Part shown: positions 35,138 through 63,111 of the stretch, in pieces
Layout of the letters: every line of letters starts with the position of its first letter
Position numbering within the stretch: the stretch's first letter is position 1
Source: Eledone cirrhosa
Taxonomy: Eukaryota
Assembly (NCBI GenBank): GCA_964016885.1
Contig: OZ024743.1
Location: 251,162,001 to 251,226,000 of the forward strand
Reading direction: 5' to 3'
Length of the DNA: 64,000 nt
Notes under the pieces: model-generated
Databases searched by the model: none
The model's input: only the letters and a program-made list of their open reading frames with translations
What the model was told of the DNA's origin: nothing
Position numbers and translations under genes: made by a program

Positions 35138-38100
35138 ATGAATCTGCGAGCTACCAAGCACCCATGTGAAGCGCCAACCAAGAGACCTTTCCCTACGAGT
35201 GACGACAAATGCCCAAAACTTCGAGTTGGTACCATCAACGTAGGCTCAATGAAAGGAAGAGCAGGAGAAATCGTAGAAATGCTAGAGTGAAAGAAAATTG
35301 ATGTATGCTGTGTGCAAGAGACTAGATGGAGAGGAGAGTCTGCCAGAGTCCTGTTAGGAAAAAGTCGGTGCTACACATTTTTCTGGGTGGGAATGACGAT
35401 GGGATGGGTGGTGTAGGTATACTACGAGCTGACAAGTGGGTAGATAAAGTAATCTCAGTGTACAGGGTAAATGCAAGAATCATTAAACTCAGACTAGTCC
35501 TGAATAAAACAATTACCACAATAATATCAGCTTACGCACCCCAATCGGGGCTGCCAGACAAACTTAAGGATAGGTTTTACGAGTCCCTAATGCGCACTAC
35601 TGCTCTAACAGACGACAATGACTTCCTAATCATCGCAGGAGATTTTAACGGACACGTAGGTAAACACTGCAACGGCTTCAATAGAGTACATGGAGGCCAC
35701 GGGGTTGGCACAAGAAATGAGGAAGGATTCAGACTTCTAGAATTCTGCGACACCAATGACATGTCGATATGTAACACAAACTTTAAAAAACCCGACAACC
35801 ACCTGATCACTTATAGATCAGGGGAGCACTCTAGTCAGATAGACTTTATCCTCATCAGAGGACGTGACAGATGGACGGTCGTAAACACAAAAGCATTCCC
35901 TAGTGAGGAATGTACATCCCAACATAGCTTAGTTGTCAGCGACCTCACGGTCTGAACTAGACGAACCTGGAAACAGAGGCCAACCTGGAGAAGAAAGATC
36001 TGGAAGCTGAAACTCCCCTCAACCAGTAACAGATTTAAAGATATTTTACTCAACGCCTATGACAGTAAAGAAGAACAGATACATACATTTAATGTAGAAG
36101 AGAACTGGGAGTTCCCAAAAAATAATTTACTAGAGGCGACGGATGAGGTCTGTGGCTGGAGTAAGACCTCAAGCAGGAGGAGAGTGACTTGGTGGTGGAA
36201 CAATAAGGTAGATGAAGCTGTTAAGGCCAAGCGACAGGCATGGAAAGAATGGAAGAACGGGGGGAGCAGGGTACATTACTTAGAGACCAAGAGGGAAGCT
36301 AGGCGACAAGTATACTTAGCTAGGAGGGAAGCAGAGGATAGAAAATTCAAGCAGGTTTTGCAACGTGAGGACCAGAAACAGGAGGTATTCAAGATTGCGA
36401 GGCAGTGTGTCAGAGATAGTTGTGATGTCATTGGAGAGAAGTGTATCCGGAATGATAAAGGTGAGCTTGCCCTCACAAGTGCTGAGAAGAAAGATGCATG
36501 GAAGAGTCATTATGATAGATTACTAAATGAGGAGAATGCATGGGAAGAAGAGACCCTACGCCAAGTAGACCCTATAGAGGGGCCAGCAGTACAAATCAGC
36601 AGCAACGTAGTAAGTAAGGCAATCAAAGATATGAAGATGGGGAAGGCAACCGGTCCATCGGGTATAGCTGCCGAGATGCTGAAATCAGCTGGGTCTGTAG
36701 GTCACACTATAACCACACGTATTGTTAACCAGGTAATACTAGAAGGTGACATACCAAAAGATTGGTGCAGTAGCATCATTGTCAACTGCTACAAAGGTAA
36801 AGGCGATGCACTAGATAGAGGAAACTATAGAGGTATAAAGTTGATGGACCAGGTCATGAAAGTAACAGAAAGAGTTATAGCACAGTTGATTAGGGACCAG
36901 GTGGAAATAGACGAGATACAATTTGGGTTTGTACCAGGAAGAGGCACCACTGATGCCCTCTTCCTTGTGAGGCAATTACAGGAAAAGTACCTAGCTAAAA
37001 GTATGCCACTCTACTTGGCATTTCTCAACCTTGAGAAAGCTTTTGACAGAGTTTCACGTGCTGTAATCTGGTGGGCTCTTAGAAAACTAGGAGTAGATGA
37101 ATGGCTTGTGAAAGCGGTACAAGCCATGTATAGGGGAGCAGTCAGCAAAGTTAGGATTAGCAATGAGTATAGCGAGGAATTTAGCGTACAGGTTGGGGTC
37201 CACCAGGGCTCTGTTCTTAGTCCCCTCCTGTTCATCATAGTCCTGCAGGCAATAATGGAGGAGTTTAAGACCAGATGCCCATGGGAACTCCTGTATGCTG
37301 ATGACCTCGCACTCATAGCTGAATCTATGGTAGAACTAGAGAATAAATTCCAAACTTGGAAGCAGGGACTAGAAAGAAAGGGTCTCAAAGTCAACATGAC
37401 AAAGACTAAGGTCCTTGTAAGTAGACGAGAAAACAGAACCCAGATCCCCTCAGAGAAATCGCCTTGCTCAGTATGTAGGAACGGTGTAGGTAGGAACTCC
37501 ATTCTCTGCCCCAAATGCAAACAATGGGTACACAAGAGATGTAGCGGGATCTCAGGAAGCTTAATTAAGAATGTAGGCTTCACATGTAGCAGTTGTGCTG
37601 AGACAGCAAGCAGCAAACAGCCACAGGAAATAAGTACCACCAATCTCTTGGAGGGCTCTGTAGAAACAGTAGACAGCTTCTGCTACCTAGGTGACCGAAT
37701 TAGCAGTGGAGGTGGGTGTTCAGAAAGTACAATAACTAGGGTAAGAACGGGATAGAAGAAGTTTAGGGAACTACTACCACTGCTAGCTGCAAAAGGCTTC
37801 TCCCTCAGAATGAAAGGCAGACTGTATGATGCTTGTATCCGAACAGCAATGTTGCATGGTAGTGAGACCTGGGCGCTGAAGGTAGAAGACTTACGTAGAT
37901 TAGAGAGAAACGATGCCTGCATGCTCCGCTGGATCTGTAACAGTAATATACGTGAACGACAAAGCATAAATGAATTGAGAGAGAGACTGAGCATAAGAGG
38001 AATCAAATGCTGTGTGCAGGAGAGGCGGTTGCACTGGTATGGACATGTGATGCGTATGAAGGATGACAGCTGCATAAAAAGGTGCAGAGCACTAGAAGTT

Positions 38101-38555
38101 GATGGAAACCGCGGAGTGGGGAGACCCAAGATGACATGGGATGAGGTGATAAAAGCCGACCTTACCCAATTACACCTCTCAAAGACAATGATACACGACC
38201 GTGACTTCTGGCGTCACGCAGTAATACAGAGTACCCGACCTCCCATGGGTACAAGCTGAAGCATATAGACAATATGCCCCCACACCCCCCACCTCAAGGT
38301 GGTCGTGGAGGTGCCACGGAAAAAAAAGCACCCAGCCCACACTGTAAAGTGGACGTGTAGGCGCCACGGAAAAGCACCCAGCACTCACTGTAAATGAGGT
38401 TGGTGTTAGGAAGGGCATCCAGCTGTAGAAATCAAGCCAAATCAGTTCCTGTATGAGCAAGGCATGGTCAGCCGACCAGACACTGCCCACAACAGGACAA
38501 CCCGTCTAACCCATGCTAGCGTGGAAGAACGGACGTAAAACGGTGATGATGTTTA
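35138..38555 (+). mobile_element. Near full-length RTE-clade LINE (APE, RT, PHD-type finger, 3' UTR), inactivated
   Basis: LRVGTINVGSM, DVCCVQETRW, ISAYAPQ, IIAGDFNGHVG, NYRGIKL, QFGFVPGRGTTDA, GVHQGSVLSP, LYADDL, FCYLGD, RRLHWYGHV. Stops near 35288, 35953 and 37753, and a frameshift near 35390. Ends CGGACGTAAAACGG(TGA)n. Confidence 0.96.
36184..37755 (+). pseudogene. Reverse transcriptase segment of the RTE LINE ORF (523 aa open stretch)
   Basis: Complete non-LTR RT motif series with YADD, bounded by premature stops. Confidence 0.9.
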
Positions 38556-58526: not shown

Positions 58527-59564
58527 TATCAACTAGAAATTGATTGACATATATATATATTTAAAATAAACACATGAAACAATCACAGGGGGTAATTTGT
58601 AAAGTGTGTAATCACACATAACTAGGTAGGTAACTAATTAAAGTTTAACTAGAGCTTCAAATATTACCTTTTAAAAAATGATTAATCTTCCTTGTATATA
58701 TTTCATTAAAGAAATATATTTCACCATTAATCCGTAAACTCACAGTAGTCAAATCCTGGATCTTCAGCAAGGGATAGTTAAATCTTTTCCCTTGCTGAAG
58801 ATCCAGGATTTGACTACTGTGAGTTTACGGATTAATGGTGAAATATATTTCTTTAATGAAATATATACAAGGAAGATTAATCCTATTTGAAGTTATAGTT
58901 AAACTTTAATTAGTTACCTACCTAGCTGTGTGTGCTTACACGCTTTACAAATTGTATATATATATAAATTGAAATTATTGTGTAAAGTGCTCAGGTGCAC
59001 TACAACTCGTCAAAGGTGCATGTATAGTACATAGAATAATATACAAATGTCAGGGAAGTGAACAGTGCATGAGTCATGATATACATGTGTGCATGTGTGT
59101 GGAGAGGGAACATTAGGTGTAGTGTTGGCGAATCTTGGGAAGCATGGAGGTTTTAAAGGATGCAGAGTCTCGACAGCTAACAACTGACGCAGGCAGTTTG
59201 TTCTATGCTTCAGCAACTCTGAGCGTGAAAAAATGTTCCCGAAAGTCATGGGAACTGTGCTATTTTCTGACTTTGTGGACATGTCCACGTGTGTTAGACA
59301 CATGGAAATCAAAAGGTACTCAGGGTTGTTGTTGGCAAGATGGTCAACAATTTTGTGGCCGTTTACCAAGTCAGTTGCCAGACATCGGAGCTTCAATGTA
59401 TCCATGCCCAGGGAAGGAAGGCGTTCAGAGTATGGTAGATGCCTGATGGAGGGTATTCATTTGGTTGCACGTCTCTAAACTGTTTCCAGGCAGTCAAATC
59501 TCATGTGATTGTTTCATGTGTTTATTTTAGATATATATATGTCAATCAATTTCTAGTTGATATA
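58527..59564. repeat. Long foldback with a perfect 95 bp inner palindrome; right arm interrupted by a CR1 fragment
   Basis: 58680-58774 is the exact reverse complement of 58788-58882. Imperfect pairing continues at 58595-58662/58884-58952 and 58527-58587/59505-59564. Confidence 0.9.
58968..59490 (-). mobile_element. 5'-truncated CR1-group LINE 3' end (same family as 13168-14302)
   Basis: MDTLKLRCLATDL; 3' UTR GAGTTGTAGTGCACCTGAGCACT. A shorter copy lies at ~61400-61530. Confidence 0.88.
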
Positions 59565-61390: not shown

Positions 61391-62299
61391 GTAATGATAG
61401 TAATAATAATGAAAATTATTGTGTACAGTGCTCAGGTGCACTACAACTCATCAAAGAGGCATGCATAATACATAGAATAAGGTACAAATGTCAGGAAAGT
61501 GATCAGTGAATGAATCATGATATACACACAGACATCATGGCATGGGTTGGATGAAATGTTTTGAAACAATGTTTTGCAGCTGAATGCTCTTCCTGACACT
61601 AACACTTTTGGTTGATTTTTATATATGCAAGGACACTGTATATCTATTCTAAAAAAACATGATATATACAAGCAAATGAGCCTGTCTGCCTTTTCATTTT
61701 TTTTTCCATTGTCTTTGTCCTGTGCATCTCCTATTTTGAATTTATATATATATCATCATCCCTGTTTAATGTCTATTTTCTATGCTAGCATGGGGTAGAA
61801 GGGTTGTCCCATTTGAGGCAAGTTGGTTCAAATGAATGTCTTGCTCATACAGAACTGTTTCTGGCTTGGTTTCTATGACTAGACGCCCTTCCTAACACTA
61901 ACTACATTTACTGTTTGTGATGGGTGCTTTTGTGCTGGCACTAAAATGACCACTTTACAGTGTGGACTGGGAACTGGGGCAGAGGTGTAAAGGCATGCAA
62001 GCAGGTGGTGGGATCAGGATGTGGGGGAGGATAGCTGTTAAGTGTTGCATATTAGTTATATGCATATATGAAGTGAACTTCTTAACTTCAAAGTCATGTC
62101 TTTATATATATATATATATATGCAAAAGTTCTATTTAAAATTGTTGGGATACAAGTAAATATTTTTATAACTGATATAAAGCACTCGACAAGTATTTGGA
62201 GTAGATATACGATATTATACTATCCAGATGGCTTCCAAAAATAATGGTTGCATTTTAAAAGGGTACGTCAAAGCTTATTTGTAAAACTGTTATATATTG

Positions 62300-62364
62300 T
62301 ATTTTGTCTGATGAAGGCATACCATAATTTAATTTGGTATCCCTGAAATATGTATAATGAAATA
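62300..62364 (+). ncRNA. Type-I hammerhead ribozyme (Penelope-type, palindromic stem III)
   Basis: UAUUUUGU-CUGAUGA-AGG(C)AUACCA-loop-UGGUAU(C)CCU-GAAA-UAUGUA-UA^-AUGAAAUA. Stems I and II pair by eye. Confidence 0.7.
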
Positions 62365-62429
62365 AATATGGTTTTATAAATATAGTTTCCATTTATTAAT
62401 ATCGTATATATATATATATATATATATAT

Positions 62430-62497
62430 TTGTGGCCTAGCGGTAGGTACTAGAGATGGTGGAGATCCTGGCCTTGAGTTCAATCCTGGTCAGGAGG
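62430..62497 (+). promoter_or_regulatory. tRNA-like Pol III internal promoter (A and B boxes)
   Basis: TGGCCTAGCGG ... GAGTTCAATCC. No full cloverleaf. Confidence 0.55.
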
Positions 62498-62616
62498 TAC
62501 ATGTAATATGAATGTATGTATAGTATACTTGGCAATATACCGTACGTTTAATTAAAAACAATTAGAAGACCATACACTATCAGTTTTAAAGTAGTGACTA
62601 TGTCACTTACTTCTTT

Positions 62617-62700
62617 TCGGCAAAAGAAGGGAGAGAAGCTGACAGTCTGTTTCACGCTGGTTGGTGTTCATCAGAGCCACTCACTCCCTGCTTCCGCCGA
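62617..62700 (-). ncRNA. Type-I hammerhead ribozyme, copy 1
   Basis: UCGGCGGAAG-CA-GGGAG-UGAGU-GGCU-CUGAUGA-ACAC-CAACCA-GCGU-GAAA-CAGACUG-UC^-AGCU-UCU-CUCCC-UU-CUUUUGCCGA. Intact core, GUC site, long stem I. Confidence 0.85.
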
Positions 62701-62927
62701 AAATTATAGAAGCTTGATTCTTATAGAATTCCAGTAATAATCAGGAGATGATTATACAGAGCGATTGCCGGTCCAGCAAAAATTAGGTATTAGGATTGGT
62801 GCTCTGAAATAACGATGTATACATGAATGTATGTATAGTATATTTGGCAATATACCGTATGTTTAATTAAAAACATTTAGAAGACCATATGCTATCGGTT
62901 TTAAAGTAGTGACTATGTCGCTTCTTT

Positions 62928-63011
62928 TCGCTGAAAGAAGGGAAAGAAGCTGACAGTCTGTTTCATGCTGGTTGGCGATCATCAGGTCACGCACTCCCCT
63001 GCTTCTGCCAA
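62928..63011 (-). ncRNA. Type-I hammerhead ribozyme, copy 2 (more mutated)
   Basis: CUGAUGA-UCGC-CAACCA-GCAU-GAAA-CAGACUG-UC^AGC. The core is intact; stems I and II are weakened. Confidence 0.75.
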
Positions 63012-63030
63012 AAATTATAGAAGCTGGATT

Positions 63031-63066
<36 letters not shown>

Positions 63067-63071
63067 CCTTA

Positions 63072-63111
<40 letters not shown>

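Follow-up and report, generated by a model that had tools for sequence, protein, structure and literature searches.

A 64,000-nt window of the Eledone cirrhosa genome (contig OZ024743.1) carries, on the minus strand at 62508..63034, two direct repeats that each contain a hammerhead ribozyme (HHR) motif. The initial annotation of this window took them for a non-autonomous, Penelope-dependent retrozyme with a unit of ~311 nt that gives rise to a circular RNA, which raises the question of whether this locus is such an element, how it was inserted, and whether an RNA circle was involved. We regard it as likely that the locus represents a decayed non-LTR retrozyme copy, inserted in trans by what is likely a Penelope-like enzyme and possibly from an RNA circle. 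Below, positions above 19,000 are those of the window, and "unit" positions are those of the family repeat.

Two type I HHR cores lie on the minus strand. In the 3' copy (copy 1; 62614..62703), CUGAUGA is located at 62674-62668, GAAA at 62653-62650, and GUC with C17 at 62641; in the 5' copy (copy 2; 62925..63014), the same elements are found at 62985-62979, 62964-62961, and with C17 at 62952. The motif predicts cuts after 62641 and after 62952, 311 nt apart, as initially annotated. Both motifs are real and exceed chance: a 24-nt HHR pattern has 753 exact matches in the genome and its reversed control has none. The cut-to-cut monomer (62641..62951) is 311 nt long with 38% G+C (38-39% with the family), and it lacks 4 nt of the family unit near 62919. 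Copies of the family align from ~63034 to a 3' end at 62508, so that the insertion is a single arm of 527 nt or ~1.7 units, 5'-truncated at unit ~231-233. No coding frame was found in the unit, in which the longest stop-free frame has 61 codons, and an open reading frame with reverse transcriptase (RT) and GIY-YIG domains, as in an autonomous Penelope element, is absent from the locus. The two passes through the unit have no variant in common and differ at one subfamily site. Folded as a circle, the locus copy gives z -2.5 (60 shuffles).

The two ribozymes differ in how well they are kept. Copy 1 folds into the long, bulged stem I that had been described for it (z -3.44; 2/200 shuffles as good), and under hammerhead constraints it forms 4/4 pairs of proximal stem I and 3/4 pairs of stem II, with one A-C mismatch. 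The stem I region of copy 2 has no comparable fold (z +0.09); its core is intact, and the same constraints leave it 1/4 pairs of proximal stem I and 2/4 of stem II. The stem II sequences are ACAC/GCGU in copy 1 and UCGC/GCAU in copy 2. The consensus proposed from them, ACGC-CAACCA-GCGU, is identical to the family majority, but the idea that each copy is privately mutated fails for copy 2, whose U at position 10.1 of stem II is shared by a whole subfamily (67/147 passes). Stem III was thought to close on a 1-nt loop, which is impossible in a monomer; it would instead form 3 bp with a GAC loop, at a cost of +2.1 kcal/mol. As an intermolecular duplex of two copies it reaches -6.9 kcal/mol, and the suggestion that the palindromic stem III may work as a dimer is thus energetically plausible. 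Such a dimeric arrangement through a short stem III has been described for metazoan HHRs (PMC4209133). An Rfam scan of the locus, one of the proposed checks, gave a weak match of copy 1 alone to HH9 (18.8 bits, E 0.089), below the gathering threshold of 52. The 5' ribozyme has decayed, with most of stems I and II gone, and is probably inactive. Because of this decay, production of a 311-nt circle by this locus is predicted to be unlikely. The locus is an old, ordinary copy that has drifted since insertion and probably no longer releases a monomer.

The host genome (3.0 Gb) contains many relatives of this copy, which we refer to as family A. A DNA search with the locus returned 5,396 candidates, and the main matches among the 40 that were scored are 87-96% identical. 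A pattern from the 3' region has 1,898 exact genome matches (reversed control, 0). In loci chosen by the other pattern, exact matches occur in 11/62 for the ribozyme pattern and 11/43 for the 3'-region pattern; by hand arithmetic, these rates would correspond to ~4,200 ribozymes and ~7,400 3' regions, i.e., to a dispersed family of roughly 4,000-7,000 copies. The unit length of 311 nt holds for the locus but not for the family, in which 17 of 29 full units measure 314-316 nt and two measure 311 nt (majority unit, 315). Most copies have one HHR or none, and tandem pairs of well-kept ribozymes are rare (15 exact two-HHR matches, this locus included). The longest array among 130 family loci fetched is ~3.5 units (L046), and none of these loci is a long master array. 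The family falls into two subfamily types, distinguished by A or U at position 10.1 of stem II and by GUC or GUU as the cut triplet, and the contigs of one sample contain many variant copies. The copies diverge from the majority sequence by a median of 3.6% at non-CpG sites (184 passes), and the family is therefore old, with an age of the order of 10 million years by an octopus clock (PMC13282606) if that clock fits the host.

Sister families were also detected. One of them is young, with near-identical tandem units of 310-312 nt (L034:1-870 and L049:450-1350), a minimal palindromic stem III, and 3' ends at the same two positions as in family A; it is better bench material than the locus described here. 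Remoter sister units that share a 3' hairpin region occur at L128:455-672, L135:1876-1961, and L148:506-569; in the L128 unit, the hammerhead-like core is atypical. By eye, CCAAT-like and TATA-like words stand upstream of the ribozyme in each unit (62716-62800, minus strand, in the window), a possible internal promoter. A GT..AG intron-like stretch at unit 31-152 was rejected as an intron, as none of 190 loci is a precisely spliced copy and the donor is lost in the sister family.

By its sequence, family A is a further member of the animal non-LTR retrozymes. Their head-to-tail unit of 150-450 bp, in dimers to multimers, is matched by the 311-nt unit here and by the two-HHR tandems. The initial call of a non-autonomous retrozyme agrees with the type I HHR, the non-coding unit, and the thousands of dispersed copies. 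Like the retrozymes of Acropora, Mytilus (~350-390 bp), and axolotl (Rtz331/Rtz353) reported by Cervera and de la Pena 2020 (PMC7229834), the family has a short, low-GC, self-paired tandem unit with a type I HHR and a short palindromic stem III suited to dimers, and it co-exists with Penelope elements. In one subfamily, stem II starts from a mismatched U-U at its base, as in HHR_Amex2 (PMC7229834). Unlike the long arrays described in that work, family A consists mostly of dispersed arms ranging from less than a unit to 1.7 units.

The ends of the copies were mapped in 70 loci taken in contig order among the first 100 3'-pattern matches listed; three duplicates were dropped, leaving 67 loci with 123 arms. 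By alignment, 52 arms end at unit 168±4, 41 at 141±4, 11 at 121-136, and 19 elsewhere, so that the two peaks hold 93/123 arm ends. The peak at 141 is spurious and arises where (AT)n aligns to positions 134-141, and the tail length of 27 nt that it implied was discarded in favor of exact mapping. Exact mapping places 51/55 short ends at 128-133 (26 at 133) and 46/49 tailed ends at 161-170, an offset of ~35 nt. The 3' ends are fixed and the 5' ends are random, and no LTR-type layout was seen in the arm maps. Canonical arms average 221 nt with a maximum of 515 nt (n = 104), which the 527-nt arm of our locus exceeds. Within 20 nt of the end, (TA)3 is present at 70/104 canonical ends. The 67 loci contain 41 back-to-back (divergent) junctions, which comprise 27 short+tailed, two short+short, no tailed+tailed, and 12 with one or both ends elsewhere. 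Each arm therefore uses a different site in 27/29 classifiable junctions (hand-calculated binomial at even odds, ~1e-6).

The locus fits this pattern in part. Its 3' end is at the short fixed site (62508..62514), without a partner arm, and meets the AT-rich edge of another repeat (62431..62506, plus strand), an internal fragment of a different dispersed family that is joined directly to the retrozyme. Its 5' end meets a (TA)n tract (63033..63110), the likely target, although no target-site duplication is definable. Within the arm, the short site corresponds to 62823 (unit ~133) and the tailed site to ~62788 (unit ~168), based on the family 3'-end mapping and PMC11167929; the ~35-nt "tail" between these putative RT start sites spans 62788..62822 (minus strand).

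Published hallmarks of Penelope elements are a tail of 30-40 bp at just one of the ends and a 5'-truncated partner in inverted orientation (bioRxiv 2021.04.23.441226, PMC8557442, PMC3846280). In the anole element PAc, the two RT start sites flank the tail, and on AT-rich DNA the enzyme nicks each strand and extends it (PMC11167929). The footprint of family A resembles that of the EN+ Penelope elements (Poseidon PAc, PMC11167929; Neptune, PMC8557442; Adineta Pen2a, PMC3846280) in its two internal starts downstream of the HHR, its one-end tail of that length, its inverted 5'-truncated partners, and its AT-rich or (TA)n targets; unlike them, its unit has no RT/GIY-YIG frame. The two 3' ends ~35 nt apart and the inverted arms bear out the predicted Penelope dependence, and the (TA)3 near the ends, with the (TA)n at the 5' junction of the locus, does the same for (TA)n targeting. 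Altogether, this makes it very likely that the retrozyme was mobilized by a Penelope-type enzyme. There is one discrepancy: PAc uses its start sites equally on both strands in vitro (PMC11167929), and the one-start-per-arm rule of family A conflicts with such strand symmetry, pointing to a missing step in Penelope integration.

What, then, was copied? The 3' ends fall in the middle of the cut-to-cut monomer, and a linear cut monomer could yield at most 133-168 nt. The predicted cut is crossed by 63/104 arms, three of which cross it twice, and stops within 8 nt of it number 3/68 passes versus ~6 expected from background. Arms cross the cut without a pile-up there, which excludes a linear cut monomer as the template and leaves three candidates: a circle closed by ligation, a multimer that stayed uncut, or a jump between templates. 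Variants within insertions were also compared (111 loci, 268 passes). Mismatch at subfamily sites is 0.13 between tandem passes, 0.17 with the other arm, and 0.42 between loci, and rare variants are shared at 7%, 12%, and 1.6%, respectively. Because the subfamily letters are shared, the passes and arms of one insertion come from a single template type; the sharing of rare variants falls short of a single molecule.

The strongest alternative to a circle keeps the family and the enzyme but has RT copy an uncut read-through RNA from a locus with two or three units, or jump from the 5' end of one cut monomer to another monomer. All arms, including the longest canonical one and that of our locus, fit within an uncut two-unit transcript, and loci with two or three HHRs exist (the 15 exact tandems and the array of L046). 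In vitro, unprocessed RNA was the dominant substrate of PAc, and HHR cleavage was not needed (PMC11167929); among nine dimers of Xenopus retrozymes, eight failed to cleave (preprint 10.64898/2026.07.22.740005). Against these points stand the lack of a long master array among the fetched loci, the circles demonstrated for retrozymes of coral, mussel, and axolotl (PMC7229834), and selection on the ribozyme; template jumping might also have left a pile-up at the cut, and none is seen.

The case for selection comes from comparison between families. A check proposed with the initial annotation, conservation of the core above the flanks among inserted copies, showed no difference (mismatch 4.8%, 63/1303, vs 4.6%, 1228/26802, in the rest), but this is not telling because inserted copies decay neutrally. 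The sister family is identical to family A in 214/319 aligned columns (67%). The proposed check on stem covariation proved positive between them: 11/32 named stem pairs change on both sides (0/500 shuffles; slid controls, 2-4) in one family-to-family comparison of 14 family-A rows with two sister rows, the pair structure being drawn from the same sequences as tested. The covarying pairs sit in stems I, II, and III and in the hairpin just upstream of the 3' end, and the only pair broken in the sister family is a U-U pair, likewise in one family-A subfamily. This covariation indicates selection on the fold, and its maintenance by compensatory change suggests that cutting mattered. The majority unit is highly self-paired as a circle (z -6.75, 60 shuffles), while the active monomer fold of the majority sequence lies 8 kcal/mol above the minimum-energy fold, which counts against the circle. 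On balance, we give a circular template about even chances, and place the uncut or jumping template somewhat below that.

A second alternative is that an autonomous Penelope element has the unit as its pseudo-LTR, the copies representing 5'-truncated ends of that element. Penelope elements are indeed known for such ends, for inversions, and for an HHR, and the search that bears on this covered 40 inspected loci from 150 scored (all above the cut-off) of 10,596 genome GIY-YIG candidates. Neptune-type Penelope elements, with RT and GIY-YIG, are abundant in this genome. Six of six frames scanned carry RT, and four also score for GIY-YIG; the C-termini have a CxxC linker before GIY-YIG, the mark of Neptune/Nematis, which is hypothesized to drive microsatellite targeting (PMC8557442). 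In none of the 40 inspected loci does the family-A unit serve as a terminal repeat or pseudo-LTR; the terminal sequences and HHRs of the resident Neptune elements differ from it, which, as far as these loci go, speaks against a unit that is only the terminal repeat of a Penelope element. Moreover, upstream-extending arms continue into a previous unit, up to 1.7 units (67 loci), and we therefore consider the pseudo-LTR explanation improbable. Family-A matches at L144 and L179 were rejected as partner repeats because they are nested insertions. Least credible of all is that recombination spread a satellite or a local tandem duplication in which the hammerhead-like motif is functionless, which would suit the flat conservation of the core and the sub-threshold Rfam score but not the dispersed single insertions, fixed 3' and random 5' ends, and stem covariation.

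Several observations concern the resident Penelope elements themselves. By eye, a hammerhead-like motif ends the Neptune-type elements at L164, L169, L172, and L174, ~1.0-1.3 kb downstream of the frame; in this motif, U3-A8 replaces C3-G8 and stem III is palindromic. The Neptune copies at L166, L167, L170, and L178 have a canonical HHR core ~390 nt after the stop. Named relatives of one resident Penelope protein include bivalve proteins and records labeled as bivalve symbionts, in keeping with a molluscan host though not indicative of its class.

Returning to the Penelope-mobilized retrozyme, we can outline how it may have moved. Transcription would start from a master locus that has at least two intact ribozymes, and the HHRs would cut, probably in dimeric form with the palindromic stem III as the contact, after which a host ligase would close the monomer into a circle. 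A Neptune-type RT/GIY-YIG protein would then bind the hairpins near unit 100-170 and nick (TA)n, and cDNA would be primed at ~133 or ~168, with one start on each side of the break. RT would run round the template and over the cut junction, falling off after ~220 nt on average. At our locus, where only the short-site arm is seen, RT would have run for 527 nt, and the copy would have drifted later. In its full form, i.e., that a Neptune-type enzyme copies a ribozyme-made circle into both ends of one (TA)n break and that these ends are non-equivalent, one using the near site and the other a site ~35 nt further, we offer this scheme tentatively. If it is true, the copies are a fossil record of retrotransposition from circular templates and, at the same time, of an asymmetric dimer mechanism behind the Penelope "tail" and inverted arms. 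The family provides an insertion footprint with exact start sites, and the proposal is thus testable with one purified protein and one short RNA.

Dependence on Penelope of retrozymes that move via circles was proposed in 2020 (PMC7229834). Penelope-type fixed ends and inverted arms, documented here in a family known from sequence alone, do not appear in the part of that paper available to us. Li, Clavereau and Pollet 2026 (10.64898/2026.07.22.740005) propose the same dependence for retrozymes of a similar size range (~310-340 bp). Their sample comprises vertebrates, three insects, and a coral and, in the sections available, no mollusc, and their evidence is that retrozymes co-occur with Penelope elements and share pLTR homology. 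They define an "active" locus by two consecutive competent ribozymes and favor local, satellite-like amplification, whereas our evidence is an insertion footprint, and a homologous pLTR was not found in the 40 loci. Our literature search found no publication on cephalopod retrozymes or on this footprint; the family may be present in the octopus repeat library (PMC13282606) or in supplementary data to PMC7229834 or the preprint. In the main text of the O. vulgaris repeat paper (PMC13282606), the words "ribozyme," "hammerhead," and "retrozyme" never occur.

The sequence around the locus is itself rich in repeats. The repeat at 62431-62506 (plus strand) has 1,849 candidates in the genome, and its full copies hold two inverted tRNA-like segments. 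We take this flank repeat to include tRNA-like A/B-box motifs, and an A/B-box pattern found no match in 62431-62506. It was rejected as a SINE head, as it is an internal piece of a longer repeat. Farther away, a near-perfect 79-nt palindrome at 58742-58820 scores weakly against miRNA models and is probably an inverted repeat junction. By eye, no host gene is evident among frames of at least 120 aa in 19000-64000 of the window, and the remains of a LINE-like reverse transcriptase occupy 35326-38259 (plus strand), with a 599-aa frame and flanking pieces.

Next to the retrozyme, between two (TA)n tracts, lies a 283-nt element of a separate family (62122..62404, plus strand). It contains a third, unrelated type I HHR (core 62308-62356, plus strand) that the initial annotation had missed. 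This family has 1,585 candidates, and its contig depth is far higher than that of the retrozyme. All 12 fetched loci begin at nearly the same base after (TA)n, and the family may have a fixed 5' end. About ten more hammerhead families were seen in the flanks of L001-L142, several of them paired in inverted orientation within (TA)n, which would make this genome unusually rich in hammerhead families.
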